A program made the position numbers and the translations under genes. This document shows positions 19,053 through 35,743 of a stretch of 64,000 bases of DNA, in pieces; positions within the stretch are counted from its first letter, which is position 1; each line of letters begins with the position of its first letter. The DNA comes from Halobacteriovoraceae bacterium. Its GTDB lineage: Bacteria > Bdellovibrionota > Bacteriovoracia > Bacteriovoracales > Bacteriovoracaceae. Under the pieces are notes generated by a model, which was given only the letters and a program-made list of their open reading frames with translations, was not told where the DNA came from and made no database searches. The DNA lies in contig CAVRCF010000005.1 of the NCBI GenBank assembly GCA_963719505.1, positions 416,001 to 480,000 on the forward strand, in the 5' to 3' direction.

Positions 19053-19057
19053 TAACC

Positions 19058-19077
19058 CAGTATACACGTGTTTACTG
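19058..19077. promoter_or_regulatory. Palindromic TetR (FabR/DesT-like) operator
   Basis: CAGTATACACGTGTTTACTG, 20-bp near-perfect palindrome 5 nt upstream of the hemolysin III ATG, between the divergent genes. Confidence 0.7.
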
Positions 19078-19157
19078 AAAAATAAACAAAAATTTTAAAA
19101 TTCAATTAAGTCACTGTATTTAATACCTTTTTTATCAAAACTAAGTTAACATAACGT

Positions 19158-19754: not shown

Positions 19755-19757
19755 ACT

Positions 19758-20099
19758 TTAGCGACAGCTTTTAACTTTTTTGATCGCACTCTTTAAAGTA
19801 ATCTTATTCCAAGGCTCGATTGGGCTAATAACTTTTCCTAGTTCACCTGAACATTTCCAATTACATTTCTCACTGATATCAATACAAAGTTTCATTGTAA
19901 TCTTACCAAGCTTAATACCTTTGGTATTTTTTAAAGAAATTGTGCTTTGAGAAGTGGTGCCCTTGAAAACATCAAAAGTCGCCGATCCTTTTTTTATATC
20001 GGAAACCTTTCCAATGACCTCATAACTTCCCTTCTCAAAGAGAAATTCTACTTCAGCAAAAGAGGAAAATGACAAAAGTATTAACATTATTATTTTCAT
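19758..20099 (-). CDS. Small exported hypothetical protein
   Basis: Signal peptide ending SSFA; 4-nt overlap with the upstream gene. Confidence 0.65.
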   Translation of the reverse strand: MKIIMLILLSFSSFAEVEFLFEKGSYEVIGKVSDIKKGSATFDVFKGTTSQSTISLKNTKGIKLGKITMKLCIDISEKCNWKCSGELGKVISPIEPWNKITLKSAIKKVKSCR

Positions 20100-21418
20100 A
20101 AATTATCCAGTGCGTTTTCCCGCTCACAGGCCATAAGGGATTCGAATTTTTTGAGATCATTAGGAGACTTCTCTTTAAGAGCAATAATCATTTCGACATC
20201 ATTCATTTTTCGAAGACTGGCCGTATACTTCCTTAAACTTTTAAACATATCCCCTCTTAAGTCTTCCCAAAGAGATTCAATATTTTCTAGTTTAGTATAA
20301 TCATTTTTATCAGTTGATTCCCAAAGTTTTACAAGTGTCATTTTTCTTGAGTGAAGATCTTTGACTTTGTCATTAAGCTCATCAAGGTTTTCTTCAATAT
20401 ACTTTGAAGCGTTTTTATACATTCTGGAATAAGCACCATAAAGTTTATTTCTACCTGCAAAAGTATCTATCTGCTTTTGAACGGAGTTATTCTCTATCTT
20501 GTCTAATTGGCTTTGAAGATCTGACAAAACTGTAAATTGATCTTCATTAGCCATTGAAGACTGACAATGAATACACAATTTTTTTGGAGCTTTCCCTAGC
20601 GAAGTCTGTGGAAAGTCCTCTCCACTAAAAATAGTGGAAAAAGATTCTTTATAGGTCTTATCATTTAGATCGTTAAGTTTGCTTTTCAAAAAAACACCAG
20701 AAGTTAAAGAAGTCCCTTTTACTAGATCATCAATATCTTCACCGAGGTTATAATAATGGAAGTTAAACAGATTTGTCTCTTTCATTAAATCTTTTCTGGT
20801 GGGAGTGGATAATCCAAAGAAGTCACTAACACTTTGAATTTTATTATCGTTATAGCTCTCACTCCAATAGTCCCAGCCAATAGGTAAATACTCATTCATC
20901 CTGGCACTATCAGTTGCTGAGACAAAACCTGTTGAGAGGTTCTCATCATTAACGGAAGCTCCCCCACACATTGATTTAATATTTTTAAAGTTAGAGCTTA
21001 TAATTGTTTCACTAAATTTTGGCCAACAAATCTGAGAGGAAAACGTCACCTCAGTTCCCTCTGGCAGTCTCCTATCCAAATCCCCCAATGCTTTTGAGTA
21101 GGTCACAAACTCACTTGCGCTAAAAGGAAGCTTAGTCGATGAACCGTGATCCACAAATGAGATATGGAGCTTATCTTTTTTTGGATCGAATTTTTCTTTC
21201 TTTAATTTGTCTTCAAGAATAGTGTGAGAATTAGACATATCTAAATCATGAGTTTTAACAACCAAGCATCCCATCTCTTTGGCCTTTTTTTCTACAAACT
21301 GGGCCCTATGAAAATGCCTTTTCTCATCTGACACACCCAAAAAGACGTAAGTAAAACATCTGGCCGATGCGCTAAAGGAAATTAAAAATAAGGCAGTAAT
21401 AATGATAAGCTTTTTCAT
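20096..21418 (-). CDS. Exported hypothetical protein, possible clan CD (caspase/legumain-like) peptidase fold
   Basis: Signal peptide; HISFVDHG and FSSQIC motifs. Confidence 0.6.
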   Translation of the reverse strand: MKKLIIITALFLISFSASARCFTYVFLGVSDEKRHFHRAQFVEKKAKEMGCLVVKTHDLDMSNSHTILEDKLKKEKFDPKKDKLHISFVDHGSSTKLPFSASEFVTYSKALGDLDRRLPEGTEVTFSSQICWPKFSETIISSNFKNIKSMCGGASVNDENLSTGFVSATDSARMNEYLPIGWDYWSESYNDNKIQSVSDFFGLSTPTRKDLMKETNLFNFHYYNLGEDIDDLVKGTSLTSGVFLKSKLNDLNDKTYKESFSTIFSGEDFPQTSLGKAPKKLCIHCQSSMANEDQFTVLSDLQSQLDKIENNSVQKQIDTFAGRNKLYGAYSRMYKNASKYIEENLDELNDKVKDLHSRKMTLVKLWESTDKNDYTKLENIESLWEDLRGDMFKSLRKYTASLRKMNDVEMIIALKEKSPNDLKKFESLMACERENALDNL

Positions 21419-21425
21419 GTAAGTA

Positions 21426-21452
21426 TTATCGGTTAACCAACCAAAATTGTTA
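21426..21452 (-). promoter_or_regulatory. Sigma28 (FliA)-type promoter
   Basis: TAAC-N15-ACCGATAA, 7 nt upstream of ATG 21418. Confidence 0.55.
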
Positions 21453-21476
21453 AAATTAAAAGCACAACTCTTAAAG

Positions 21477-23411
21477 TCAGTTAATCACGATGAGTTTAAA
21501 TTTTTCAACTTGTGTAAAGACACTGGTAGCTGTGGGATTGAGAAACATCTCGCCAGAGCTTTGAGATATAAGACCTATTGCTATCATATCAAAAGAGTCA
21601 ACTTTATCAGCAATTTGCTCAAAGCTCATTGGTCCAGTGAGGCCAAATTGTTTTGCTGAAATAAAAGTAATATCCGATCCCCCAGCGTGAAAGAGATACT
21701 CAAAAACTCGATTGAGTTCAAACCTCAAGGCCACATTGGCAAGGATATAACTTATGACTAAGGGACTAATAATTGTCTCACCTTGTTTGGCGACAAAAAG
21801 TTTTTCATTTTCTGGTTCTGCTAGTTCAATCAAGATGGGAACTCTCTTTTCCAAATTAAGGAATTGCTTTAATTGCAAAATACCTAAGATCGAGCGAGCA
21901 TCGGCATCTGAACTATCATTGGTTCGATCACTTGAGAGAAAAACAATATTCGTATAAGGACTAAAATCAAGCTGAGACATTTCACTAAAGGATGTGTAAT
22001 CAGCTTGGATATGTTTAATTCTTGATTTCATTTTCTCGTCTACTATCTTAGATAGACTTTTTTCTCTTTGAGAGATATCAAAAAGAGAAACAATATCGAC
22101 ATCAAAATCAAATTTTTTCGTCTCTAAAAGCTCGTTAATTAAAAAAGGTGCTTTTTTACTCCAGCCCATGACAAGAAGTTTTCTTTTTTGCACGACATAT
22201 TTTTTAAGGACTCCGGTCTCTTGGCTCGCTTGAGCTTTTGATATTCTTTTATGGTCAACATAAATGGAATCATAATTTTTGGTGATTAAGATAATAAGAT
22301 CATTCGCTTTTATAATCTCTGAATCTTCAGGGTTGATAAGGCATCTATTTTTGTCCTTGTTAGAGACAATTCCAATGGCAATATTTTCTGGAAAAGCTCT
22401 TTTAATTTGCCCCCAATTTTTACCAATTAAGTCACTAAACTCTTTGAGATGGATTTCACTACCTCGCCCCTGAGCAATAAGTTCAGCGATCACCAAGGAC
22501 AATCCTGGATTTTGGATATTCTGAGCAATCATTCTTGACAGTAAGACCCTACCGGAGACGATTTCAAGATTTTGGGGATAGGCCGCTTTAGCAACTTCAA
22601 CATTATTATTATCTAGGATTTCTACCACAACCTTTGGAGGTGTTCTCTTATTAAGCTCAGAGATATTATTAATCGATAGCAATGCTTTAATGGCCCGTGT
22701 GTCTGAATTTTCTTGTCCACTGTTGCCATAAATCGATGAAGGCATGATAACAACAGAGCTATTTTCGACATTAATTCTCACAAGATCGTCCGCTTTCATA
22801 GAGTCCCCCGTTCTAAAAATTACTTTTCGAAGTTGGGATCCCGAGCCAATATGATCGCTAAGGTCCGCGGTGAGTTCATAGCCAACTTCTGGGTTGAGGA
22901 CGATAATTTTCTCTGAAGCTCTTTTATTAATCTTCAAAAACATCTTAAACTTTCTTTTTGATGAGATGATTTGCTGAATAATAATGGGAGTTCGATTATT
23001 GTATCCAAGAATTGAGATATGGCCCTTCATCATAATGGGGGTATAGCCAGCTTCAAGCTCTTTCATCATTTTATAAAGCCACTGGGTCATGATGGCTACT
23101 AAAGAGCCCATAAAAAGAACGTAGCCCAAAAGAGTTAAAGCCGTTGCTAAAATCCTTTTGGCCATACCATTATCATCACCAAGGTATCCAGGGTCACTCA
23201 TTCGTAAAAATGCCCACCAAGAACTGTTCTTTAAATCACCAATTTCTGGCTCTATATATAAAAGGACCTCACCGCCAATAAGGGAAATAACTCCTATGAC
23301 AAACCCAATAAACAATACTTGATAAAATGGTCCTCGGATGAGAAATCGCTCAACTTGATATTTAACGTACAACACAAATTTTGAAGAGAAGCTTTTTGGA
23401 CCAAGAGACAT
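21477..23411 (-). CDS. CASTOR/POLLUX (DMI1)-like ion channel with two RCK domains
   Basis: WWAFLRMSDPGYLGDD pore motif, GHISILGYN RCK start, DADARSILGIL. Confidence 0.85.
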   Translation of the reverse strand: MSLGPKSFSSKFVLYVKYQVERFLIRGPFYQVLFIGFVIGVISLIGGEVLLYIEPEIGDLKNSSWWAFLRMSDPGYLGDDNGMAKRILATALTLLGYVLFMGSLVAIMTQWLYKMMKELEAGYTPIMMKGHISILGYNNRTPIIIQQIISSKRKFKMFLKINKRASEKIIVLNPEVGYELTADLSDHIGSGSQLRKVIFRTGDSMKADDLVRINVENSSVVIMPSSIYGNSGQENSDTRAIKALLSINNISELNKRTPPKVVVEILDNNNVEVAKAAYPQNLEIVSGRVLLSRMIAQNIQNPGLSLVIAELIAQGRGSEIHLKEFSDLIGKNWGQIKRAFPENIAIGIVSNKDKNRCLINPEDSEIIKANDLIILITKNYDSIYVDHKRISKAQASQETGVLKKYVVQKRKLLVMGWSKKAPFLINELLETKKFDFDVDIVSLFDISQREKSLSKIVDEKMKSRIKHIQADYTSFSEMSQLDFSPYTNIVFLSSDRTNDSSDADARSILGILQLKQFLNLEKRVPILIELAEPENEKLFVAKQGETIISPLVISYILANVALRFELNRVFEYLFHAGGSDITFISAKQFGLTGPMSFEQIADKVDSFDMIAIGLISQSSGEMFLNPTATSVFTQVEKFKLIVIN

Positions 23412-23602
23412 ATTTAATTCCTTTAATTTATACCCCTATGATGGCGAAAATCCTGTTAAAAGTAAATTTTAATTGGCACTGAGAAAAAAAACATAACTAT
23501 TAGTTATATGTAAGGTAAAGGCTTATTCTTCCCATTTACAGGGAACAAGCATAGGATTAATATCAGACGAATAGAGACATCCATCCTTTAGAGGGAAACT
23601 TA

Positions 23603-24277
23603 ATGAAAAGCCATTTTGAAGTAAACATAAAGACATTTAAAAACCTTAAAGAAATTAAAGGTTCTTGGACCAATGAGCATTTTTTAAAAATCATGGAAGA
23701 CCTTGAGTACTCTGACACAGATGGGATGAGTGAATCTGATTTAAAAGAGACAGCAATTATGCTCTTGCAGGATCTTGAGCCAGAAGACGCAGCCTTAGTT
23801 CTCTTAAAATTAAAACTTGGTGAAAAACTAAAAGAGGGACAACTTAAAAACATCTCAAATGAGATGTTGGATGAAAAGCTTTGGGAGGAATATGCAGAAC
23901 CCTCTTTACATGAAGATTTTTTTGTCGTCGCAAGCCTTTTATATCAAGTCGCACCTAAGATTTTTCCAAAACCAGACGCAGTCGAGATGAGTTTTGACAT
24001 CACGGCATCAAATGATAAATCAGCTCAGGATCTTCTGTCTCACTGCCAAGAAAACTTTGTTTTGAAAATCCTCGCCGACGGGATGGATAATGGATCAATT
24101 ATTCATAGGCTCTATGGTGATCAGCTTGCAACTTTCTCTATTGAGGAAGCCAGTAAAATACTATGGACTTTAGAAAAAACTGATCAATCTGAAAAGACAG
24201 TTAGTTTTAAACTTATAAGTTCTGGATACTGGATGGATCCTTTGATGGGTATCAACTCATTTGAATCTTCCCTATAA
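23603..24277 (+). CDS. Hypothetical protein
   Basis: 224-aa ORF with AGAGGG RBS; acidic; no family recognised. Confidence 0.75.
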   Translation: MKSHFEVNIKTFKNLKEIKGSWTNEHFLKIMEDLEYSDTDGMSESDLKETAIMLLQDLEPEDAALVLLKLKLGEKLKEGQLKNISNEMLDEKLWEEYAEPSLHEDFFVVASLLYQVAPKIFPKPDAVEMSFDITASNDKSAQDLLSHCQENFVLKILADGMDNGSIIHRLYGDQLATFSIEEASKILWTLEKTDQSEKTVSFKLISSGYWMDPLMGINSFESSL

Positions 24278-24321
24278 TCAGGTAAATCCAGCTCTTTTGG
24301 TGCGGCTGTACTAAGATCAGA

Positions 24322-24350
24322 TTTACATATTGGCCACATTGCAGTATTTT
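24322..24350 (+). promoter_or_regulatory. Native prfC sigma70 promoter, stranded left of the island
   Basis: TTTACA-N17-TATTTT upstream of the orphaned prfC 5' end; near-copy at 33873-33901. Confidence 0.6.
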
Positions 24351-24384
24351 GGGCACTCAAAACTTTATATTTACAGGAAGACAT

Positions 24385-24441
24385 ATGAAAACAATTCACC
24401 CACGCTGCACATTTGCCATTATATCTTCGACCACGCCCTAA
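24385..24441 (+). pseudogene. prfC: Displaced native 5' end of prfC ([18 protein letters not shown])
   Basis: [15 protein letters not shown] identical to the RF3 N-terminus at 34132; stops shortly after the att core. Confidence 0.85.
24401..24419 (+). repeat. attL core direct repeat
   Basis: CACGCTGCACATTTGCCAT, identical to 34148-34166. Confidence 0.9.
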
Positions 24442-24480
24442 TCACGCTCTACCAGAAGCATCGAGATCATTAATCATTCT

Positions 24481-24501
24481 AAAACAACATAAAAACCACA
24501 T
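24481..24501 (+). repeat. Putative integrase arm-type sites (left end)
   Basis: AAAACAACAT-AAAAACCACAT; the same units recur four times at 33966-34020. Confidence 0.6.
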
Positions 24502-24826
24502 CAATAGATAAATGCACATTAAATTATAATGTGAATGTTTAAAATTTTCCGCATACTAGAAAGTAAGTAGTCAGGTTTTTTATGTGTTTACCTTTTGCGT
24601 AGAGAACGATCTTCAAACTAATAATTGTTCACACATTCAGATTCAGACAGCAATGGTTTGAAATCTTTAAACACTGATACCTTGAAGTCTATTTTAAAGT
24701 TCCATCAATTCAGGATAAAGGTTAATAGTAAACTCATTTTAATAGTGCCCAGTTTGTCATCAAATCTATACAAGTAGTAATACTTATCTAGATTTAATTT
24801 ATAGACATTTAGATAACAATTTATAC

Positions 24827-25420
24827 ATGAAATCAATCGTATCTCGATCAATATTGACAGTTTTATTTGTTATAGCAAGTGTAATAGGCTTTGCCGTTTT
24901 CAGGTTCTATTATAATGTGAGTACAGAGTTTCCTTTTACTCAAGAATTTATACTTGTTCTATTAGGAGTTATATCAACAGTTTTGATAACTGCGATTCTA
25001 CTCATCCAACAATCTAAACTCGATCTTCGAAAAGAAGAAAAAGTACTACTTGTTAATCAGAAAAACACTATTTACATGGGAATAATTGAAGAAGTTTCCA
25101 TGATTGCGGATAATAGAGATTTTGAACCCAAAAGTATATCTCGTTTAAAGATCCTTAATCACAAACTCTCGATTGTTGGTAGTATTCTAGTTGTTAGAAA
25201 CTTCAACAAAACTTTAGACTTATTATTAGAGGGTCTTGAAAAGAAATGCATGACCGAGCCTCAAGCGGAAGAATTGATGCACTCAATTGCTGAACTAACT
25301 TTTTACATGAGAGCCGACCTCCTAGGAGAAAACTTAGAGGAGATCGATGGTGTTATGGGAGATATTATATCTAATTCTAAAGATATCGAACAAGTTGAAG
25401 ACAGAGGTAATCAACCCTAA
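24827..25420 (+). CDS. Hypothetical membrane protein (island cargo)
   Basis: Two N-terminal TM helices followed by a helical cytoplasmic domain. Confidence 0.75.
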   Translation: MKSIVSRSILTVLFVIASVIGFAVFRFYYNVSTEFPFTQEFILVLLGVISTVLITAILLIQQSKLDLRKEEKVLLVNQKNTIYMGIIEEVSMIADNRDFEPKSISRLKILNHKLSIVGSILVVRNFNKTLDLLLEGLEKKCMTEPQAEELMHSIAELTFYMRADLLGENLEEIDGVMGDIISNSKDIEQVEDRGNQP

Positions 25421-25572
25421 ATTAAACTTTTAGAAATATTCATGAGGGAGAAAATAAAACAGGTGCTTTTAATTTAAGATTCTATTCGACGTCAAAACTT
25501 CGATTACTGCGTAAACATGAGGCTTTGGCTTTACTTGCCCGAATAACGTTCACATAAAAGACTTCTACCCGC

Positions 25573-27381
25573 TCAACTTAATTGTTTATCCATCATTCTA
25601 TCTATAACCTTCTTAGCCCAGTTTTTTGGAGGGTCGCCAAAACATTCTAGAATAGCATCAACACCAAACAGGGCTCCTTTAGCCAATCTTCCTAAAACGG
25701 CAACAGGCAAAGAGCCGTTAGAGGTCAATATGAGAGAGGCATCATCTGTTTTGAGACCAAGATCTTCATAGACCGATCCGATCTTTAAGTCATTTAGTAA
25801 ATTCACTATTATCGGCGAGTTCACATCTCTTATATCGGGAGCTGCTAAAACTGAATTGATCATAAATTCAGTTGTAATTGTAGATTTCTGATTTTCTAAA
25901 GTCCATCCTGAAGAGCTATCCAACTGAATATCTGGATTATTAACAAAGTCTAAATTAATTAAACCGACCTTTGTGAGAGCAAGTAATTGCTGCATACTCG
26001 CCAGCGGAGGGCCAAATGCGTACCTCTTTAGGCGATCATCCAAGGTGATGATTTTGGTCATTATTTCGTCATCCACGGGCGCTAACGAAAAAGCTTGGTA
26101 CATTGTTGGCTGCATTTTCCGCCACACTTGACCTATACAATAGTCCAAACTCACTGGCTTGGTAGAGGATGCCATCCCAACAAAATTCTCAATAAGTTTC
26201 GTTACATTCTTCTCATTTTCAAAAATTTGATCATTAACATTTGCTCCTTTTATCCACGTGAGTGATAGTTCTTCTACACCTTGCATGGTTAGTGAATGTT
26301 CGACCGCCTTAGTGTCTAAAGCCATAAATACGGTAGCTGCATTGAGAGCCGCAAGCCTTTGAAGATTTTTGAATACGTCTCCACCAGATTTTATAAGTCG
26401 ATTCAATTCTGGTAATAGCTGGTCTTCATTGATAATGTCATGTTCGTACCAGCTATCAATGCTCTCGTCCCTGGGCTTGGGAGATAAGGGAAGACCGTCG
26501 AGCGAGAAAGGAACAATAGTAGCAGGCTCCTTTCCGCTGGCTCTATAGATCATAGATAAAGTCTTAGGACATTGAGTCTCAAAGGTTCCTCCAAGTCCGA
26601 TAGTCAGAGCTCTCATCGTATCAATCATAGCTAGTCCGAACCCTCGGACAGCAACTCGTTTAGTATGCATATCGGGTAGTGTAACGTATGAGTGAACAGG
26701 ATATGCGCTTGTAAATAACCTAGGCTTGCTCTTATCAGTTGTTAAACTCTTTAGCCAACCTTGTATCTGTGGATCAAATTGCACTGTCTGGTGACCAATT
26801 GTTAACAAGACCTCATCATATCCCATAGACGTCAACCCGTCACTTTCCCTATCAGGTGGCGAGAATGCAGATGATTTACCTTGGGAGCCGAATGAGTATT
26901 CGACTGAGTAATGTTTACCAATTGGATTGATTCGAACAACTCTTCCTCTAATTACTTTCAAAAGATTAATGTGCTCAAGTGAGATTGCTAATGAATTGAA
27001 TCTCTCTATCAAGTAATTTCCAAGATAAGAGCGGCTCGGATAATGATCTGCTTCGTGTCTTGGATTTTCTCTTTGGCTACTTTCTGATGGTCGGGGACCC
27101 TTTCTCTTTGACCATTCGTGAAAAGATGGAAAACCCTGTATCTCATTATCGTTAATAATAATAGATTTTCTGGGTTCTAATTTGAGAAGCCTCGAAGAGA
27201 TATTGAGCCAATTGGTATCAGGTTGCTTAGAGGAATATACTGGACCAGCTCCCAGCCACAAACTTTCTTCAAAAAGTGTGCAAATTGGATAGTCGCTTGA
27301 GAGGTTACGTGCGGCTGAAGTAAAAAGGTTTTCCAAAGCAAAAAGTCCTCGTGGCCCCCCTCCAACAATAGCAATTTTCAT
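25573..27381 (-). CDS. FAD/NAD(P)-binding protein (YdhS-like)
   Basis: KIAIVGGGPRG Rossmann motif, YPSRSYLGNYL, VLLTIGH, second motif RGFGLAMID. Confidence 0.85.
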   Translation of the reverse strand: MKIAIVGGGPRGLFALENLFTSAARNLSSDYPICTLFEESLWLGAGPVYSSKQPDTNWLNISSRLLKLEPRKSIIINDNEIQGFPSFHEWSKRKGPRPSESSQRENPRHEADHYPSRSYLGNYLIERFNSLAISLEHINLLKVIRGRVVRINPIGKHYSVEYSFGSQGKSSAFSPPDRESDGLTSMGYDEVLLTIGHQTVQFDPQIQGWLKSLTTDKSKPRLFTSAYPVHSYVTLPDMHTKRVAVRGFGLAMIDTMRALTIGLGGTFETQCPKTLSMIYRASGKEPATIVPFSLDGLPLSPKPRDESIDSWYEHDIINEDQLLPELNRLIKSGGDVFKNLQRLAALNAATVFMALDTKAVEHSLTMQGVEELSLTWIKGANVNDQIFENEKNVTKLIENFVGMASSTKPVSLDYCIGQVWRKMQPTMYQAFSLAPVDDEIMTKIITLDDRLKRYAFGPPLASMQQLLALTKVGLINLDFVNNPDIQLDSSSGWTLENQKSTITTEFMINSVLAAPDIRDVNSPIIVNLLNDLKIGSVYEDLGLKTDDASLILTSNGSLPVAVLGRLAKGALFGVDAILECFGDPPKNWAKKVIDRMMDKQLS

Positions 27382-27642
27382 CTCATATCGCCTTTGAAGT
27401 ATACAACTGTGATTAGAAGTTTGAATTGACGTCGATTATTCTAATCACAATTCAAACTAATTAATCTGATTTAGATTTGTATGATAACTGGTTTTAATTT
27501 GTCTTATTGAAAAGACTAAAAAATACCAGCGAGTTTTAAAACTGCAACTACAACAACAATTAAGCCTATAAGATATATTATATTTCTCGGCATATATTTT
27601 CCCCTATTTTTTGAAATTTAGTTAATATTGTCTGAGATAATA

Positions 27643-27664
27643 AGAAGGCTGGATAACCAGCCCT
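27643..27664 (-). terminator. Probable intrinsic terminator of the 27673..28182 gene
   Basis: Minus strand AGGGCTGG-TTAT-CCAGCCTT-CTT just after the stop codon. Confidence 0.55.
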
Positions 27665-27672
27665 CCCCAATT

Positions 27673-28182
27673 TTAATTTGTAGAAATCTTCTTTGGTTCA
27701 AAGTTGCCTAAGCTTTCTTTTAAACTGTCGACTCTATCGCTATCAGTCTCAATCCCAACTAATACATGTCCACGACCTAGTTCTTCATCAACGAACTTAG
27801 CTTCAACTTCAGGAATTCCCATTCCAACAAGTCCACCAATAATACCACCAGCTGTACCACCTGCACCTGCACCAGCGAAAGCTGCTACTAAAGGTCCAAC
27901 TGCTAAAAGTCCTGCTCCACCAGTTAAAGCTACTGCTCCAGTAGCTGTAAGGCCTGCAACTACTGCTCCTGCAACTCCACCGGCTGTTGCTCCAATAGCT
28001 GTACCTTCTGGTGCCTTAGAGTTTTCTTGAATTTTTATATCTTCTTTTGAATTCCATGAATTCTCAGAAACAAGTAATGAGATATTATCTGCGTTATAAC
28101 CGATATTCTCAAGGTAGTTCATAGCATGCACCGCTTTAGTTTTATTTTCGAAAATTGCTGTTACTCGTTTTGTACTGCTCAT
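27673..28182 (-). CDS. General stress / glycine-zipper membrane protein
   Basis: VTAIF...GY..DNISLL; APEGTAIGATAGG glycine zipper; GLVGMGIPEVEAK; AGGAG RBS. Confidence 0.8.
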   Translation of the reverse strand: MSSTKRVTAIFENKTKAVHAMNYLENIGYNADNISLLVSENSWNSKEDIKIQENSKAPEGTAIGATAGGVAGAVVAGLTATGAVALTGGAGLLAVGPLVAAFAGAGAGGTAGGIIGGLVGMGIPEVEAKFVDEELGRGHVLVGIETDSDRVDSLKESLGNFEPKKISTN

Positions 28183-28697
28183 AAAATCTCCTTTACATTG
28201 TCCCTGTAGGCCAACAATAGTTTAATGTGTAACTACTTTCTTGTAGCTACTTATGTTGAATAGATAATACTCTGTTTGAACAAGATAGATTTTAGGAGAC
28301 TTGGAATCTATATGTTTAAATCTTCACATCAGTCCTTTAACCTATAGGCAGTAAAAGCACGAGAACTACATACTAGAGGGTGGTAGCGGTATTCGGCAGG
28401 TTAAAAGGCTTATAATATCAGAGTTGAAATTAAACCAGATACACTAGCTCTACCAATGTGATATTCATAAAACACACCGATTTCTGCACCAGAGCGTTTA
28501 CACTAAGTAGAAATTCAAGTCTATTATCCTTGCTCCATGCAAGATCAATGAGCTTTATATTTCCTGGAGTGTCGATTTTATAGAGAAGGCTTTTGAGTTT
28601 AGAGCTTAGGAAATACTGAATCAAGAATTCATGAAAGAGGTACAGAGTTTTAAGAGTGTAAAAGTCAGATGACCATACTTTTGTTAGTTACTGAATA

Positions 28698-29053
28698 TCA
28701 TAAGTTTTTATAAACCTTGTGAAGTTTCTTATGCTCATCTTTCATTCTCAAATATTCCTCATCTTTTCGAACAATATCATAAACCTGTTTAAAAATTTCA
28801 GCAGATTTTGCTTTTTCATTCACCAAAGCATTCGCCGATTGCGTTAACACATCACCTAAATCGTTATACTTAGTCCCTGAACCGTGGTTCGCATATCTCC
28901 TAGCTCTAGTCCAGCCCATCTGAATGAATTTTCTCGCCATATCCATCCCAACGAAGTCTGCCTCATCTTTATATGAATTAAATTGGTTGAAAATAATTCC
29001 TACTGACTCAGCAGCGATATCAGGAGTTTTAAATCGCCAATTAGGTAAGATCT
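28698..29053 (-). pseudogene. DUF4385-family gene, 5'-truncated by the IS3 element
   Basis: Frame reads ILPNWRFKTPDIA...FVGMDMARKFIQMGWTRARRYANH and runs directly into the IS inverted repeat; N-terminus absent. Confidence 0.8.
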
Positions 29054-29086
29054 TGGACTGCGGTCGTTTGATCGGACACCAACATG

Positions 29087-29908
29087 CTAAAGTTTAAAAA
29101 CAGGTCGATCCTTTTTTTCTTCAGTGTAAATATCTTCAAATTCTTCCGGTGGCAAGTAATTCAAAGATGAATGCAATCTTTTCTTGTTATAAACTTCTTC
29201 AATAAAATATGGCAACTTATCAATCACGTCTAAAAATGTATCGTACTTCCTCATAAAAATTTCTTCGTACTTTAAAGTTTTCATAAAAGATTCTGACCAA
29301 GCATTGTCGTAAGGATTTCCTTTTCGAGAACATGATAGATGAAAATTATTTTCCTTCAATTCTTTAACATATTTAGCGCAGAGATATTGTACTCCTCGAT
29401 CTGTATGATGGATAACTCCTTCTGGCGGCTTTCTTCGCTTGATGGCCATCTGTAAGGCATCTAGAGTTAACTGTCCATCAATCTTTTTTGAGACTGACCA
29501 ACCGATAACTTTACGAGAATAAAGATCAAGAAGAACTGCCAGAAAAACAAAACCATTTCCGATTCTAATGTAGGTTATATCTCCGGCCCAAACTTGATTG
29601 ACTCCATCAATAGTCATCTCATGAATCAAATTTGGATAAACTAATTCATCGTGATCCGACATCGTTGTTTTCATGTGCTTTCTTTTAGGTTTTAAAAAGA
29701 GCCCTGATTCACCAAGAATTCGTCTTAAACGAGTTTCTCCAACTGAGACACCATTTCTTTTTAAGTGCTGTAGCAATGGCCTGTAGCCCGCTCTTGGAAA
29801 CGTGACTCGTAGTTGTTCGACTTTACCTCGAATGTCGGCATCATGTTCTTCTTTTTCAGCTCTGGTAACTTTTGAATCCGCATAATAAGTTGATGATGAA
29901 AGCTCCAT
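29087..29908 (-). CDS. IS3 transposase OrfB (DDE); frame extends upstream to the A7 slippery site
   Basis: WAGDITY, HHTDRG, NAWSESF triad; YNKKRLHSSLNY. Confidence 0.93.
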   Translation of the reverse strand: MELSSSTYYADSKVTRAEKEEHDADIRGKVEQLRVTFPRAGYRPLLQHLKRNGVSVGETRLRRILGESGLFLKPKRKHMKTTMSDHDELVYPNLIHEMTIDGVNQVWAGDITYIRIGNGFVFLAVLLDLYSRKVIGWSVSKKIDGQLTLDALQMAIKRRKPPEGVIHHTDRGVQYLCAKYVKELKENNFHLSCSRKGNPYDNAWSESFMKTLKYEEIFMRKYDTFLDVIDKLPYFIEEVYNKKRLHSSLNYLPPEEFEDIYTEEKKDRPVFKL

Positions 29909-30304
29909 TATTTGGATTGCCTTCTTTTTAGTTCCTGTGCTTTTATAGTTTTTAGTAACCCAGTCAATTCGCTCTCTCGTTGTAAGGGTGGATACTTCAG
30001 GAGTTTTTTTAAAAGGTCACTTATGAGAACTTGTTCGGCAAATTTCTTTTTATAGGCATCAACTTCGAGCTCTAAGTTCAAAAATTCTTTGTGATTCCTC
30101 GATAGAATTTCCGCGAGCTGTTAGCTCTTCAACTCTGAGACCTTTAAGCTTTTCTTCTCTGAGTACTTTCCATCGATAAATGTATTGAGGTTCAGCTCTG
30201 AGTTGCTCTGCAATTTGATCGACACTGAGGCTTCCGGCAATGAATTCGTCAACGGCCCAGTCTTTTTGCTCTTTGGTAAATGTTTTTCTGTTTCTTTTTG
30301 TCAT
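29908..30304 (-). pseudogene. IS3 OrfA (HTH) with one extra base near 30074
   Basis: AGGAG-N6-ATG; after RIFEL the +1 frame continues ELEVDAYKKKFAEQVLISDLLKK...QSK* and ends in a TAATG overlap with orfB. Confidence 0.75.
30003..30013 (-). other. IS3 programmed -1 frameshift site
   Basis: T TTA AAA AAA C in repaired orfA; the -1 frame is open (KTPEVSTL...IQIMELSS) into orfB. Confidence 0.7.
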
Positions 30305-30438
30305 TTTCAACTCCTAAATTGATTATATCAGATTTAAGAATTGACCTATTTTCAGGGCTTTAAATAAGTATGTTGGACTCCGATATTACGACCGCAGTCC
30401 AAAGATATGTACTATTAATAACTAAAAGCTCAATCATC

Positions 30439-31248
30439 ATGCCTCGAACTTCTTCTCCAATGTTTATTTCCTTTCAAAACTTAGCTAATGAACTTGATAA
30501 ATTCTTTACGGAGGAATGGAATAAACTGGTATTCAAAAATGAGTTTTTACATACCAAAGAAAAGGATAAGATCCTTTTAGCAAATATTAGGTTAGACTTA
30601 GAAGAATGCTCTCATGCTTTTTTTATGCTCTATAATAGCTTGTTAAAGCTTCGAAAAGATCAACAACTCATCCTAATAGAGAAAACGAGTTATTCTCTTC
30701 AAAAAAGAATGCAAAAAACCCAAAGATTAGTAGCTGAATCCACTGTCCTAATAAAATCAATTTATAATTTATTTTTTTCAATAAGAGAGATGCTTTCAAG
30801 TTCTCCAAAGCTTAAAGAACTTTTAACTCCATCAACACTTATTGAATTAGATAGAGTTTGCGAATTTAGATCAAAGCTAATAGTTCATAAACAGGATCAA
30901 AAGCTATTTACTGGCTCAGCAAGAAAATATAATACTGAGGACTTGAATATCACCTTACAAATAGGACAATACACTCCAAGGGGTAAAGAGGTATACGGCC
31001 AGTGTAAGAAGCTTTATGAGAGTTCTCAGAAGTTCTTCCATATAGAAGATCAGAATTATGATAACTATTATGAAATAGCCGATATGCTATACAAAAATTT
31101 AAGCTTAGTCCCTAAACATCTTAAATCCGATGTTAAAGGATTCATCGCAGCTTACGGAGTATGTTCTGATCCTCCCCTAAAGCTTGGTGAGCTTTTAAGA
31201 AACCTCGTATTTGAATATTTTAGATTTGTAAAAGAGCTACAAGATTAA
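30439..31248 (+). CDS. Hypothetical helical protein with HEPN-like RxxxxxH motif (start 30439 or 30460)
   Basis: ELDRVCEFRSKLIVHK; the listed ATG at 30370 lies inside the IS inverted repeat. Confidence 0.6.
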   Translation: MPRTSSPMFISFQNLANELDKFFTEEWNKLVFKNEFLHTKEKDKILLANIRLDLEECSHAFFMLYNSLLKLRKDQQLILIEKTSYSLQKRMQKTQRLVAESTVLIKSIYNLFFSIREMLSSSPKLKELLTPSTLIELDRVCEFRSKLIVHKQDQKLFTGSARKYNTEDLNITLQIGQYTPRGKEVYGQCKKLYESSQKFFHIEDQNYDNYYEIADMLYKNLSLVPKHLKSDVKGFIAAYGVCSDPPLKLGELLRNLVFEYFRFVKELQD

Positions 31249-31260
31249 AAAAGAAAAAAA

Positions 31261-31851
31261 TTAGTCAAAAAGCTCTTCTTCAAACCATAAGAAATTTTTA
31301 TTCACAAAGTTTGGATCAAAAGTATATGGGTTATAAAAACCACCTAACCAAGTGATCAGTTCATCTTTTTCTTCAGAATCCTCTCCTAATAAAGTCGACT
31401 TTAAACTTTCAAAGCCACCGATTCCACCGCAATCTTCAGGAGGACAGGCATTCTCCCCTCCGATACAAACGGGATAATTCATTCGTCGATCAGTTTCGAG
31501 AACATTTGTAATCTCCACTTTATGAATCCAATCGTCTCCAAAGTCATATGTGTAAGAAAATTCTTTAGATTCACCTAAAACTTCACAAAGTAAAATTCCT
31601 TCAGCATTATGCGTATCATCCATTTCCAAAGCTGATTCCGGGTCTGAGTATGACTTATTATTAATATCTAGGACGAAAAGGTGAGAATCTTGCCAGCCCA
31701 TAGTCATTTGAATAAGCATATGTAGCTCATAGAGCTCAATCACTTCATGAGCGAGAACTTTTCTCCACACAAGGGGATTGGTCTCATTAAGAGAGATCGT
31801 CAGTTCAAGTACTCTAGGGTTCTTTGGTAGTTTTTTTATTTTATTGGCCAT
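31261..31851 (-). CDS. Plasmid pRiA4b ORF-3 family protein
   Basis: PLVWRKV, LHMLIQMTMGWQDSHL, YTYDFGDDWIH, GENACPPEDCGG. Confidence 0.92.
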   Translation of the reverse strand: MANKIKKLPKNPRVLELTISLNETNPLVWRKVLAHEVIELYELHMLIQMTMGWQDSHLFVLDINNKSYSDPESALEMDDTHNAEGILLCEVLGESKEFSYTYDFGDDWIHKVEITNVLETDRRMNYPVCIGGENACPPEDCGGIGGFESLKSTLLGEDSEEKDELITWLGGFYNPYTFDPNFVNKNFLWFEEELFD

Positions 31852-32059
31852 AAGAACTTATATCAAATAGATCTAAAAGTGTCATCCACTTACCTCGCAG
31901 GGTTATTTCAAGAAGAGAGATTAATAATATTCATACTTAACCAAGCTAAATATAAATACACAAATGGCTTAATAAATCCCCATAAAATATTCCATAAGTG
32001 ATTTGTCATCAATAAAAAGATACTTTTTATATTCGTTAATATTTTCATAGTTTTATCCC

Positions 32060-33106
32060 TTATAAAAAATTCAAATTAATAGTAATCCCCTGAATATGAA
32101 TCCCAGACTTCCTAATATAAATTTGCATGGTCTTCAAATCCTTCCATCCTCCCATGGCCATCACCTTAATGGGCTCTACACCTTTTGAAAGCTTAACGGT
32201 TGCCCAAGAAGCTCTTAGGTCATGAAAGCGATTGAGGGGAAGATTACATTCACTAAGAAATGCTTTTAAAGTGATTGCTTGCGATCCTGTCTCCCAATCC
32301 CTAAGTCTTGGTAGAATAAACTCATCAACTGATTTTTCTTTTAACTCTTGAATAAGTGTAATAAGGCTTGGTGCAATTTCAACAACCCTATCATTACCAG
32401 ATTTAGTTTCCTTAAACCCATTTATCTTATTCCAAGAAAGAGTTATATAAATTAGCCTCTTTTTTAAATCGACGTTCTCCCACTTAAGAGCGTAAAGCTC
32501 CCCATTTCTAAGTCCGGTGTAACAAGCCAATGTCCATACAGAAAACCACACATGATCCTGCTCCCTAGCCTTTTGAAGAAAAATCCTGATCTCTTTTTCA
32601 TTAAGTACCTTCTTAATTTTTTCACTCTTCTTAAATTTTAATTTTGGACAAGGATCTTTTGGAATAATGTCATGTTCTACTGCATATCTAAATATTGCTC
32701 GAAGATACTTAAGCATATTTTTTCTATGGGCCTCTGAAAACTTTCCCATATCTTCTTGAATAAAATCTCGAAGCTCTGCGGTTGAAAATTCATTGACTCT
32801 TTTTTTATTCCAAAGGTGAAAGATATTAGCTTCTATGCACTGCTTGTAAGGTTGAAGAGTATTCTTAGCAATTCCGCAGTTTGCGTAGTATTCCAAAAAT
32901 TTTTCTACAAGATCAGGCCACAAGGGATAAAGATTTTCATTGAACTTTTCCCCTAGTCTAATAATTAGCTCTTTGTAGACCTTTTGCGCTTCGGCCTTAG
33001 ACTGAATTCCTTGTCTTCTTAAGCTCCTTGGAATTCGAGTTATAGGGTGTCTTCTGCTATAGGTAACAATATAATATTTCTTTTCTACGTCGTATTTAAT
33101 TCCCAT
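32060..33106 (-). CDS. Tyrosine recombinase / integrase
   Basis: Catalytic set R (GLRNGE), K (TKS), HxxR (FHDLR), W (MGGW), Y (TMQIY); short N-terminal arm-binding-like domain. Confidence 0.93.
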   Translation of the reverse strand: MGIKYDVEKKYYIVTYSRRHPITRIPRSLRRQGIQSKAEAQKVYKELIIRLGEKFNENLYPLWPDLVEKFLEYYANCGIAKNTLQPYKQCIEANIFHLWNKKRVNEFSTAELRDFIQEDMGKFSEAHRKNMLKYLRAIFRYAVEHDIIPKDPCPKLKFKKSEKIKKVLNEKEIRIFLQKAREQDHVWFSVWTLACYTGLRNGELYALKWENVDLKKRLIYITLSWNKINGFKETKSGNDRVVEIAPSLITLIQELKEKSVDEFILPRLRDWETGSQAITLKAFLSECNLPLNRFHDLRASWATVKLSKGVEPIKVMAMGGWKDLKTMQIYIRKSGIHIQGITINLNFL

Positions 33107-33117
33107 GGGTCATCTCC

Positions 33118-33480
33118 TTAATTTTCTAAGAACGTCATTAAAAATGCTTTCACAGTTTTTAATTTTTGATCATCAAGACGTTTAATAATGGAGATGCACT
33201 CACTTCTATTGTGCTCAGGGATTTTAAAATTCCCTTTAAGCATTCCTTCAAATTGCTCATAGCTGTATCCATAAGAATCTAGGAATTTTAAAATAAGCCC
33301 ATGACTTAGATCCATTCTTCCATTTTCAGCATGATTGACTTGAGTGCTAGAAATCCCAACAAGGTCTGCTGCCTTTCTCATAGAGAGGCTTCTGGACTCT
33401 CTAAGGTAGGCCAGTAATCTTCCCTCTGGTGTTTCGATTTTAGTGTCGCTTCTGCGAAACTTTTTCTTTTTTGGTTTCAT
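33118..33480 (-). CDS. Xre-family HTH regulator, in an operon with the integrase
   Basis: LRESRSLSMRKAADLVGISSTQVNHAENG; GGAGGA RBS. Confidence 0.9.
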   Translation of the reverse strand: MKPKKKKFRRSDTKIETPEGRLLAYLRESRSLSMRKAADLVGISSTQVNHAENGRMDLSHGLILKFLDSYGYSYEQFEGMLKGNFKIPEHNRSECISIIKRLDDQKLKTVKAFLMTFLEN

Positions 33481-33519
33481 GAAATCCTCCTTCTAAACCG
33501 GTTTGAAAAAGTGCTTTGG

Positions 33520-33589
33520 CTACACTGAGTAGTTTTTTAATTACGATTACTTAGCTATTCATTTTGAGGGTCTAACTACACTGAGTAGT
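33520..33589. promoter_or_regulatory. Two identical 14-bp quasi-palindromes, putative Xre operators
   Basis: CTACACTGAGTAGT at 33520-33533 and 33576-33589, upstream of xre-int. Confidence 0.55.
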
Positions 33590-33872
33590 CTTTTTCATTT
33601 GTAGCTGAAATCAAAAATAGCTACAAATAGCCACATCGGGACAGTTTCGGACTGTTCAAAACAGGTCGAGCTCCCGCAAAATAGCGTAAGCTACCGTAAT
33701 TAAGTAGTTGATTTTAATAAAGATTTAAGAAAAAGGAGGTCCACCATCCCCTGCGGATGGTGGAAACTATTAGAATTGAACCGCCAGCTATACAGTTTCA
33801 CAAAAACAGAACTACGTGAGTAGTTTGAATCAAAACATATAACCAAGTTTAGACTCGAGAAAGAGAGCTTGA

Positions 33873-33901
33873 TTTACATCTAGGCCACAATGCAGTATAA
33901 A
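33873..33901 (+). promoter_or_regulatory. Island-borne replacement promoter for prfC
   Basis: TTTACA-N17-TATAAA; 25 of 28 nt identical to 24320-24347. Confidence 0.65.
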
Positions 33902-33965
33902 TTATTATGGAAAAAATAGAGAAACATGATGTTTGTTACAACCAAATGGACTAATTTTGGAGCTT

Positions 33966-34020
33966 AAAAAACCACATAAAAACAACATACAAAATAAAAA
34001 AACCACATAAAAACAACATA
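33966..34020 (+). repeat. Two copies of a 24-bp repeat, putative integrase arm-type sites (right end)
   Basis: AAAAAACCACATAAAAACAACATA at 33966-33989 and 33997-34020. Confidence 0.7.
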
Positions 34021-34131
34021 AAAACGATAAAAACAGATAAATATAAATAAACACCGGCAACAGATACAAAGCTTCAAAGCTCAGCAATAAAGGTCGCATA
34101 GAGCATTTAAAGACTATAGGAATACAATTAT

Positions 34132-35743
34132 ATGAAAGATATACTCTCACGCTGCACATTTGCCATAATTTCCCACCCCGATGCGGGTAAGACAACTGTC
34201 ACGGAGAAACTCTTGTGGTTTGGTGGTGTTGTTCGCGAAGCTGGAAAAGTAAAGGCCAAGCACGGTGAATTTGCAAAGTCGGACTGGATGCAAATGGAGC
34301 AAGATCGAGGAATCTCAATAACTTCAACTGTTATGAGTTATCACTATAACGACCGTGCCGTTCACCTCCTGGATACTCCAGGACACAAGGATTTCTCTGA
34401 AGATACCTATAGAACTCTAACTGCAGTTGAGTCTGTCCTTATGATGATCGACAGTGCCAAAGGAGTTGAGGGCCAGACTGAAAAACTGATGGAAGTTTGT
34501 CGTTTGCGTGACACTCCTATTGTCACGTTTATGAACAAGTTTGACCGCGACTCCCTTGATCCATTTGAACTGCTGGATAATGTTGAGCAAAAACTCTCCA
34601 TTCAATGTGTTCCTATGACTTGGCCTATCGGAGACGGTGTCGACTTCAAAGGTGTTTACGATTTCAAAACTAAAATGATTCGCTCATTTGGAAATAAAAG
34701 AGATCCCTTTAACCCAACTATTGTTGATGCGAGTGATTTAGATTGTGCTGATCTTCTAAAATTCTTAGGACCAGTTCTTACAGATAAACTCAAAGAAGAT
34801 TTACAAATGGCCAATGAGCTTATTCGAGCCTTTTAACGAGGAACTCTACCTCTCAGGTATTCAAACTCCGGTTTTTTTTGGATCGGCTCTCTTTAACTTT
34901 GGTGTCAAAGAAGTGCTCGATATGATCACAAATCATGCACCAACTCCCAGACAAAGAGTGGTTAGACTCAAGCCCTATGACCATGACGCTGAAACGCAAG
35001 TTATTAAACCAGATCATAAAAATTTCTCCGGCTTTATTTTTAAAATTCAGGCCAATATGGATAAAAATCACAGAGACCGAATTGCTTTTATGCGAGTATG
35101 TTCTGGTATCTTTAAGAGAAACACAAAGATTCATCACGTCAGAACTGAAAAAGAAATTAAAATACCAAGCCCTCAAATATTTCAAGCCCGAGACAGAGAA
35201 CTTGTTGAAGAGGCTTACCCTGGTGATATCATCGGTATCCACGACACTGGAAAATTCCAAATTGGTGACACTTTTACAGAGGGAGAGAAGTTTCAATACA
35301 CAGGAATCCCCTCTTTCGCTCCTGAGCTTTTCAGAAGTGTTGCTCTAAAAGATCCACTTAAGGCCAAGCACCTTGATAAGGGACTAAGACAATTAAGTGA
35401 AGAAGGTGCCACTCAACTTTTTATTCGTCCCTCTACTGGTGCGAAGATGCTTGGGGCCGTTGGTATCCTTCAATTTGAGGTCGTAAAGTTTAGGTTGGAA
35501 GATGAATACAATGTGAAAGCCGACTACGAGGGAACTCCCTTTTCAGGTGTTAGGTGGCTTCGTTTTGATAATGCAAAAGCTCAAGACGATTTCGAGTCGA
35601 ATTATTCTGGAAATATTCTTTTGGATGGTAAAGATAGAATTTGCTACGGTGTAAAGTCAGACTGGGACTTAAAGCTCGCTATGGAGAAAAGTCCCAAAGT
35701 TAAGTTTTATAAAAACTCAGACTATATTGAAAATCATCACTAA
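34132..35743 (+). CDS. prfC: Peptide chain release factor 3, split by a +1 frameshift near 34822-34836; first codons supplied by the island
   Basis: [35 protein letters not shown] in ORF1; [29 protein letters not shown] in ORF2; joined length ~536 aa. Confidence 0.93.
34148..34166 (+). repeat. attR core direct repeat inside prfC codons 6-12
   Basis: CACGCTGCACATTTGCCAT, identical to 24401-24419. Confidence 0.9.

Follow-up and report, generated by a model that had tools for sequence, protein, structure and literature searches.

Hochhut and Waldor reportedly found in 1999 that the SXT element supplies a new 5′ end to prfC, the gene for release factor 3 (RF3), and targeting of this 5′ end together with repair of the gene has so far been a hallmark of the gammaproteobacterial integrative and conjugative elements (ICEs) that make up the SXT/R391 family. 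Cis-mobilizable elements (CIMEs), in turn, are cis-mobilizable or defective islands that are flanked by att sites and lack a cognate recombinase of their own. Here, we analyzed a 64-kb stretch of DNA, referred to as the window, from a Halobacteriovoraceae bacterium of the family Bacteriovoracaceae, phylum Bdellovibrionota (assembly GCA_963719505.1, contig CAVRCF010000005.1, positions 416,001 to 480,000), in which two copies of the first prfC codons lie 9,747 bp apart and enclose a putative integrated element. With a probability of roughly 0.6, what they enclose is a chimera, a reduced member of a family of prfC-targeting elements that carry a 401-amino-acid (aa) integrase, Int401; its own recombinase would be gone, and it now carries an intact integrase of another lineage, Int348. 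On our best reading, the prfC-targeting family has not been described before in Bacteriovoracaceae.

In the available parts of two papers (PMC8138268 and PMC2791158), the IntSXT integrase subgroup is marked by an N-terminal DUF4102 domain (PF13356), and in the former the SXT cluster of this subgroup inserts next to prfC. The window element resembles the SXT/R391 ICEs in its site, the prfC 5′ end, where its core repeat covers prfC codons 6 to 12. The integrases differ, since IntSXT has DUF4102 (PMC8138268, as far as its available text goes) and neither Int348 nor Int401 yields PF13356 even at an E value of ≤1, which sets them apart by domain content rather than by a tree. The ICEs also possess a conjugative core of relaxase and type IV secretion system (T4SS) genes, whereas Pfam recognized no relaxase or T4SS family among the 11 element open reading frames (ORFs) scanned. 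Lastly, the hosts of the ICEs are Gammaproteobacteria, and the host of the window element belongs to a different phylum. An initial annotation, made from the sequence of the window alone, had already called the element non-conjugative and had asked whether its integrase stands outside the IntSXT type; both points hold, the second as judged by domain content.

The same strategy of 5′-end replacement is used by dusA islands and prophages, whose DAI integrases, according to the accessible portion of PMC4482086, replace the 5′ end of a conserved protein-coding gene, leave a remnant 5′ end and, once integrated, keep −10 and −35 sequences upstream; their target gene and integrase family differ from those found here. 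Among the titles and abstracts listed in literature searches, none describes a prfC-targeting element in Bdellovibrionota, and those papers listed that treat prfC integration are all on SXT/R391 or relatives. The excerpted text of a Halobacteriovorax genome paper mentions integrases, and neither prfC nor transfer-messenger RNA (tmRNA) appears in it (PMC5760749). In predatory Bacteriovoracaceae, site and repair trick alike recur, and the integrases present do not bear the IntSXT hallmark; this is a clean case of convergent target choice.

Results and Discussion

Two copies of the prfC 5′ end border the element

The window contains the 19-mer CACGCTGCACATTTGCCAT exactly two times, at 24401 to 24419 (attL) and at 34148 to 34166 (attR), both times on the plus strand. 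Allowing up to two mismatches added no further copy, and none of 100 dinucleotide shuffles of the window contained two matches. Around this core the similarity widens to 43 nucleotides (nt) at 81% identity (24383 to 24425 versus 34130 to 34172). The left copy lies in an 18-codon ORF on the plus strand that runs from an ATG at 24385 to a TAA at 24441, a stub of prfC, and the right copy lies in the ORF that starts at 34132 and constitutes the working prfC start. The three codons that follow the core are synonymous between the copies (ATT ATA TCT versus ATA ATT TCC), and the sequences diverge from there on. A second duplicated block of 28 nt, identical at 25 of 28 positions, was found farther upstream of both starts (24320 to 24347 versus 33871 to 33898). 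Its left copy holds the promoter-like site of the native gene, TTTACA-17-TATTTT (24322 to 24350, plus strand), which scored 9/12 in a promoter scan whose count of such sites was not above that of shuffles. In the element-borne copy (33871 to 33898, plus strand, from the repeat search), where the −10 sequence reads TATAAA, the scan called no site. The base composition of the segment is not distinct from that of its flanks.

Comparison with relatives told the two copies apart. The 65 nt upstream of the left ATG align with the region upstream of prfC in two genomes of the same genus (G001 and G002), whereas the right-hand upstream region gave no such alignment. In addition, a metagenome contig (L069) carries an unbroken prfC of 536 aa whose protein is 91 to 93% identical to that of the window. 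Counted on the alignment, the left copy of the window, including promoter, 5′-untranslated region and first codons, is about 90% identical to the 5′ region of this gene, and the promoter block at 24320 to 24347 is identical at 27 of 28 positions counted on the sequences. Because the left upstream region matches G001, G002 and L069, the left copy is the displaced native 5′ end of prfC and the right copy is element DNA that rebuilds the gene.

According to this reading, 9,747 bp of foreign DNA entered prfC within codons 6 to 12 by site-specific recombination. The left junction keeps the host promoter, ATG and first codons as a dead 18-codon stub (24385 to 24441), and the right junction brings the promoter-like block, tandem repeats, ribosome-binding site (RBS), ATG and six codons of the element into an in-frame fusion with prfC. 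Since the element DNA at the right junction is fused in frame, prfC (34132 to 35743, plus strand, identified by ORFs and Pfam) has been rebuilt with the element-supplied RBS and ATG and the new N terminus MKDILS, which replaces MKTIHP. The initial annotation had proposed just such an insertion of about 9.75 kb on the strength of the repeat, the stub with its promoter and ATG, the wobble-only differences past the core and an integrase and an Xre gene near the right end, and in this part it stands. It had missed the second duplicated block, the arm-type repeats at the two ends, an IS3 copy nested in the element and the 1-nt insertion by which prfC is split. It had also predicted the sequence of an empty site. 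Here the outcome was mixed, as the prfC start of L069 is nearly the one predicted, and a clean empty site was sought among the relatives and not found. It could not be demonstrated because the upstream neighbors of prfC differ in every relative examined. The same-genus genomes G001 to G003 and the sister species of G122 and G097, two genomes described below, offered no usable synteny upstream of prfC, and the sole match in the sister-species comparison was a 36-aa tblastx hit between the left flank in G097 and the region upstream of prfC in G098. The fetched prfC flanks of G001, G002 and G003 contained no match to the integrase or Xre of the window, the flank of G003 reaching only 2.6 kb upstream of prfC.

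Repeats that resemble integrase arm-binding sites are present at both ends of the element. In the left (P′) arm, AAAACAACATAAAAACCACATCAATAGATAAAT begins 62 nt past the core (24481 to 24522, plus strand) and aligns with the equivalent repeats of genomes G122, G097 and G224. The right (P) arm contains two perfect 20-mers, AACCACATAAAAACAACATA, followed by AAAACGATAAAAACAGATAAAT (33968 to 34051, plus strand, from the repeat search). These are AAAAACCACAT repeats.

As a side observation, the prfC leader of the closest species (G003, RF3 identity of 93%; L023, positions 414 to 520) reads GAAAAAACTAAAGCAAAAACAGC...GTGATAACAAAT and resembles the arm repeats plus AGATAAA. Judged from this likeness, the prfC start of G003 may also be element derived.

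Elements at the same prfC codons in other Bacteriovoracaceae

We searched 237 genomes of the family (numbered with G; G000 is the genome of the window, and L numbers denote loci) with a degenerate pattern for the prfC codons RCTFAII; a control pattern gave no match. Pairs of matches on the same strand were found in G000 (9,747 bp apart), G122 (49.4 kb) and G159 (2.26 kb). In G224 the second copy is located on a different contig, G177 has two full prfC genes, and a further copy in G097 was recovered by a relaxed pattern. The second match in G056 was set aside as doubtful, as it lacks an ATG context and may be due to chance. For G122, G097 and G224, the distal copy amounts to a short stub that follows upstream sequence of native appearance, and the real prfC begins with the proximal copy. 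Insertions at these prfC codons are found in three or more further genera within the family.

The four elements of G000, G122, G097 and G224 have one common layout. The right arm consists, in order, of a TTTAC-N17-TATAAA-like block, two tandem pairs of repeats made of AAAAA plus a word, AGATAAA, about 95 nt of spacer, RBS and ATG, five to six codons and the core. The word is specific to each element (CCACAT in G000, CCACG in G122, GTCCCG in G097 and CCCCG in G224). In the left arm, the element's own word lies 55 to 75 nt past the core and is followed by an (A)GATAAA-like motif. In the window, G122 and G097, an Xre-like gene is located about 650 nt upstream of the rebuilt ATG and reads away from prfC. 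The Xre-like genes of G122 and G097 are 34% identical to the window Xre, and no such gene was seen within 1.4 kb in G224. These natural pairs of attL and attR, each with element-specific arm repeats, are now open to direct testing.

The element of G122, which belongs to another genus, spans 49.4 kb at the prfC 5′ end (contig C4, 302308 to 351763; loci L115, L122, L123 and L116). It encodes Int401, a coupling-protein-like ATPase, a TraG/VirB4-like ATPase, SSB, FtsK, RelE and a Mom-family protein, as well as a SMODS and SLATT_6 pair resembling a cyclic-oligonucleotide-based antiphage signaling system (CBASS) and two adjacent further tyrosine recombinases. The presence of the coupling-protein-like and TraG/VirB4-like genes makes it ICE-like, and no relaxase family was recognized in it. 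Int401 is a tyrosine integrase with the domains Phage_int_SAM_3 and Phage_integrase and has little in common with Int348 (20% identical across 170 aa, E value of 7 × 10−5). Of the 237 genomes, those with an Int401 homolog of 65% identity or more are exactly G122, G097 and G224, and in G122 and G097 the gene lies 6 to 7 kb from the stub. The genome of the window has no Int401; its best match is 27% identical, contains a stop and has an E value of 1.3 × 10−7.

Smaller or incomplete cases are found at the same site. In G224 the stub is followed by an AbiEii/AbiEi pair (L118, 2314 to 3921), with no integrase match in the 4.5 kb seen at this left end; the rebuilt prfC start with its AAAAACCCCG repeats is on another contig (L120, 1180 to 1400), and the Int401 homolog, interrupted by two stop codons, is on a third (C343). 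Contig C17 of G159 (L117, 1 to 2700) carries an insert of 2.26 kb between a decayed copy of the prfC 5′ end (MDHQ*Q...) and the real prfC start. This insert encodes a protein with a RelA/SpoT domain and a repeat-rich lipoprotein-like ORF, and the distal copy has three CACTTTTGC repeats upstream. Contig C17 contains neither an Int348 or Int401 homolog nor a third copy of the prfC 5′ end. The same integration trick serves an ICE-like 49-kb element and small islets with defense-type cargo (CBASS-like, AbiE and RelA/SpoT-like).

From G122, G097 and G224 we defined a family of prfC-5′ elements with arm repeats of the AAAAAC type, the full members of which are ICE-like and about 50 kb in size. The window element has the duplicated 5′ codons, the arm layout with its repeat word and the position of the Xre-like gene in common with this family; it has no Int401 gene 6 to 7 kb inside its left end and no T4SS-like genes of the kind found in G122. 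It is like a CIME in that its att-type ends belong to a family whose integrase is absent from both the element and the genome, and the G159 islet and the AbiE-carrying end of G224 are similar cases at the same site. It differs from a CIME in that it carries an intact integrase of another lineage. The initial annotation had suggested a compact and undescribed element family. An undescribed family that targets prfC does emerge, whereas compactness does not characterize it, the window element being better read as a reduced chimera of the ICE-like family.

The integrase-Xre module is related to tmRNA-linked islands

Int348, a tyrosine integrase of 348 aa, is encoded about 1 kb inside the right end (32060 to 33106, minus strand) and is intact by Pfam and by its motifs: TG.R..E and H.LR were found by pattern match, and GGW and the tyrosine are visible in the C terminus. 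Directly upstream of it lies a gene for an Xre-family helix-turn-helix protein of 120 aa (33118 to 33480, minus strand, Pfam). The initial annotation was right about the position and integrity of these genes; it had further assumed that the resident integrase defines a prfC-targeting family and had proposed a survey of homolog insertion sites, in which homologs that never adjoin prfC would speak against it. We gathered homologs in three ways, from species-representative genomes, from metagenomes and by a family-wide genome search, the resulting sets of loci overlapping in part. No prfC lies within 8 kb of the homolog in any of 24 species-representative genome loci, and among 25 metagenome loci prfC is nearby in one, L069, where it stands beside xre-int. 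The family-wide search found homologs at an E value of ≤1 × 10−60 in 44 of 236 other genomes; of the matches listed, 32 family loci were fetched, and in all of them prfC is absent from the fetched 3 kb or so on the xre side. The survey thus comes close to the adverse outcome named above, and the assumption that the resident integrase defines a prfC-targeting family is not supported, since its homologs adjoin tmRNA and the att ends are common to elements with the unrelated Int401, which is absent here. A scan of viral_contigs with Int348 gave a single unrelated match of 26%.

What recurs beside these homologs is a tmRNA gene, which lies some 300 nt upstream of xre and was called by ARAGORN in 15 of the 32 family loci, a 12-mer of the tmRNA end was at the expected place in 7 more, and neither was present in the remaining 10; the genome and metagenome sets show the same tmRNA-adjacent pattern. 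In G042 the tmRNA end is repeated 37.7 kb downstream as a far direct repeat (21 nt at 95%, with an exact run of 12 nt). No such far-end repeat was found for the closest tmRNA island (L029, in G041), G042 alone having yielded one. We refer to these loci as the tmRNA-linked island family, which is likewise defined here.

In a tree of 28 integrases, Int348 of the window joins the tmRNA-linked L029 and L053 with a support of 94/97, within a clade of 13 members supported at 100/99. The integrase of L069 falls into a different clade, also with tmRNA-linked relatives (100/99), and a "prfC" site label on this tree needs two changes. Along with its place in the 13-member clade, the window module has two further features of the tmRNA islands, an xre gene directly upstream and a conserved arm with a hairpin. 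It does not adjoin a tmRNA 3′ end, as the window contains no tmRNA gene, and the real tmRNA gene of the genome is on another contig with no Int348 homolog beside it. The window Xre is 57 to 84% identical to the Xre proteins of tmRNA-linked islands. For L036, L090 and L105 the Xre identity to the window is 83 to 84% and the integrase identity just 55 to 66%, whereas L029 has an integrase about 75% identical and an Xre 58% identical. Because the similarities of Xre and integrase are discordant, xre-integrase modules are mosaic. The N-terminal, arm-binding part of Int348 is 65 to 69% identical to that of tmRNA-linked relatives and the other two parts are 76 to 78% identical, so that the N terminus is not unusually diverged.

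As side observations, the tmRNA-linked island family (L029 to L043 and L082 to L109) is widespread and combines the xre-integrase module with a strongly conserved arm of about 300 nt. At L091 and L101, among others of its copies, the arrangement is a tandem one, with another integrase in front.

A tmRNA relic lies in the right arm

Between xre and position 33870, approximately 390 nt show homology with the arm found in the tmRNA islands, which in many Bacteriovoracaceae lie directly 3′ of tmRNA genes with an integrase and an Xre gene like those of the window. The region next to xre (33481 to 33739, minus strand) aligns with that arm and contains GTGGCTATTTGTAGCTA and two CTACACTGAGTAG blocks. 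It is followed by a hairpin with a T run (33740 to 33766, minus strand; alignment and terminator scan), the equivalent of a terminator that, in related islands, has an overlap with the CCA end of the tmRNA gene. On the prfC-proximal side of the hairpin, positions 33758 to 33830 (minus strand) are a decayed relic of the last 75 nt or so of a tmRNA gene, colinear with the intact tmRNA genes of related loci. The sequence reads CTAC.CACGTAG, 48 nt and CCACCA, with GGTTCAATTC as a remnant of the T loop. In a comparison with shuffles, it reached a z score of 5.1 with the last 100 nt of intact tmRNA and of −0.5 with the first 270 nt. Rfam gave no match on 23500 to 35000 at an E value of ≤1 and hence left the relic uncalled; our call is based on the colinear alignment. 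The window thus differs from the tmRNA islands in having just a decayed 3′ relic of about 75 nt and in having the module enclosed in an element that is bounded by prfC cores.

The contig L069 has the same junction between relic and promoter, with the 14-nt tmRNA core intact; in the window this core is decayed. A comparable remnant occurs in G097, where a near-complete pseudo-tRNA (L124, 4267 to 4332; 26.5 bits, below the gathering score of 29, E value of 0.003) lies between xre and the right-arm promoter-like block and reads toward xre, a position that parallels the tmRNA relic of the window. Since G097 has its pseudo-tRNA at the equivalent place, relics of tRNA or tmRNA genes in this arm may be a trait of the family. 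Such fossil tmRNA and tRNA ends are a rare trace, at the level of sequence, of module swapping or retargeting between element families.

Origin of the element

The repeats, the architecture and the homologies described above are observed directly, and the combination of prfC-type ends with a tmRNA-type recombination module in one element is the reason for reading it as a chimera. The insertion would have been made by an Int401-type enzyme. Either the conjugation genes and Int401 would have been lost later, or this copy would have moved in trans. The tmRNA-type module would have come in through nested integration, with a tmRNA-like site of the arm as target, and subsequent deletion, or else through recombination within the shared promoter block or xre. 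The element would now be unable to move by itself.

The alternative that survives best is a self-contained compact island whose own Int348 recombines at the prfC core, its lineage having been retargeted from tmRNA with a fossil tmRNA end kept in the arm; we consider it rather unlikely. Consistent with it, the integrase is intact and adjoins the right end, and the tmRNA core of the window is decayed, as would be expected for an abandoned site. Moreover, L069 has an Int348-type integrase (59% identical) and an Xre about 450 nt upstream of prfC with the same relic-to-promoter junction. However, every other homolog locus is at tmRNA or at other sites and not at prfC, and the integrases of the window and L069 are in different subclades, each beside tmRNA-linked relatives, which calls for the two label changes mentioned above. 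The repeats on both sides of the window core are those of Int401-type elements, and L069 lacks AAAAAC repeats, its contig ending 1.25 kb past the integrase so that the far end is out of view. The left end of the window does not show the arm words of the tmRNA islands (GTGGCTA... and TGGTGCTAC..., which G042 has on both sides), and its left arm gave no match below an E value of 0.03 against five tmRNA-island genomes. Int348 is disfavored as the enzyme of the prfC site because its relatives are found at tmRNA, the repeats flanking the core are of the Int401 type, the tmRNA-island arm words are missing on the left and its N terminus is not specially diverged. In a more far-reaching form, which we regard as doubtful, the window would show a tmRNA-island lineage in the act of exchanging one attachment site, an RNA gene's 3′ end, for another, a protein gene's 5′ end. 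Integrases of the Int348 type, in the window as in L069, would then now recombine at prfC codons 6 to 12, attP would have been assembled from a captured host prfC promoter and first codons beside the fossil tmRNA end, and the prfC-targeting elements of the family would descend from ancestors that targeted tRNA or tmRNA.

Several observations weigh against our preferred reading of a reduced copy of the Int401-type family. A true empty site was not found among the relatives examined, and the link between Int401 and the ends comes from three genomes, in two of which (G097 and G224) the Int401 homologs contain stops. Int348 is intact with its catalytic motifs in place, and L069 presents a second Int348-type integrase-Xre pair beside prfC in the same geometry, which would fit an Int348 that targets prfC. 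A second tmRNA core inside the element, the mark of a nested island, was not found on the relevant strand. Finally, both 20-mer arm repeats are perfect, which argues for recent function despite the lack of Int401.

An origin without any mobile element, in which two prfC 5′ copies underwent RecA-type recombination or duplication (for example, the Campbell-type entry of a circle with a captured prfC fragment), is improbable in our view. The homology beyond the core (the 43 nt at 81% and the 28-nt promoter block) would suit such an event. Against this, perfect identity extends over just 19 bp with immediate divergence on both sides, and element-specific repeats flank the core on either side. In addition, four other genomes, whose sequences differ, have their junction at the same codons. 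When the elements are compared, their left and right tracts of identity overlap on approximately TTYGCNAT, which matches the size of a tyrosine-recombinase overlap region and would be typical of a site-specific crossover.

The prfC reading frame and the assembly

The prfC gene of the window is split over two frames, 34132 to 34836 and 34814 to 35743, because of one extra C at 34825, the only internal gap of this gene relative to L069 and L002. A search of 40 other genomes gave a match in every one, and all RF3-level matches listed are in an open frame without an internal stop; this is also true of the 193 among the 237 family genomes that have a match. Frame 0 ends in TTT TAA C (34830 to 34836), where, by our own reading, slippage by +1 would bring the frame back with the length unchanged. 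From the sequence, the extra C may be a sequencing error, the mark of a recent pseudogene or a case of recoding. Apart from the transposase of an IS3-family insertion sequence (IS) described below, no other split gene was found among the window ORFs examined (56 ORFs, of which 39 were scanned), and a high density of indel errors was therefore rejected as the cause. An assembly artefact, that is, a mis-join or chimeric contig around prfC, might be suspected from this frameshift and from a marker completeness of 83.5% in spite of only 5 contigs, and it is very improbable, as the 19-bp repeat is too short for a mis-join, the same architecture recurs in independent assemblies and the remaining ORFs examined are unsplit. 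The G000 assembly totals 3.69 Mb, and other family genomes with few contigs are 96 to 100% complete.

Cargo genes and a nested insertion sequence

Between the left arm and the integrase, the element carries cargo ORFs and an IS. A hydrophobic protein of 197 aa is encoded at 24827 to 25420 (plus strand) and matched no family in Pfam, PADLOC or PHROGs. It is followed on the minus strand by an ORF of 602 aa with the FAD-NAD(P)-binding domain PF13454 (25573 to 27381; Pfam E value of 1.5 × 10−21) and by a Gly-rich ORF of 169 aa (27673 to 28182), whose weak Pfam matches to YflT and DUF1269 are under the curated cutoff. The C-terminal part of a DUF4385 gene (28698 to 29052, minus strand) covers positions 72 to 147 of the 148 in the Pfam profile. 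This gene appears to have been disrupted by the IS, since its frame remains open as far as the IS end. The IS itself (29053 to 30402, minus strand) is bounded by inverted repeats of 36 nt (83%) that were found by the repeat search. It belongs to the IS3 family by these repeats and by the equivalog NF033516 (DDE transposase; 265 bits versus a cutoff of 160), and its transposase is in three frame pieces (30059 to 30310, 29908 to 30081 and 29087 to 29908). Beyond it lie an ORF of 292 aa (30370 to 31248, plus strand), the listed start of which is within the IS inverted repeat and which matched no family in Pfam, PADLOC or PHROGs, and an ORF of 196 aa of the PRiA4_ORF3 family (PF07929; 31261 to 31851, minus strand; Pfam E value of 1 × 10−50). 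PADLOC, run on 8 element proteins, returned a 16-bit match to the Xre and no defense family, and PHROGs gave matches of the integrase, regulator and DUF4385-like types only.

Outside the element, what lies upstream of prfC varies within the family. The synteny of the window with the same-genus genome G002 stops at 18405, and in G002 only 1.8 kb separate that point from prfC. The approximately 6 kb of the window from 18405 to 24320, which extend from an M28 peptidase gene to the native prfC promoter, have no counterpart beside prfC in G002 and contain HlyIII and TetR genes, two ORFs without assignment, a Castor/Pollux-RCK-type channel gene and an ORF of 224 aa.

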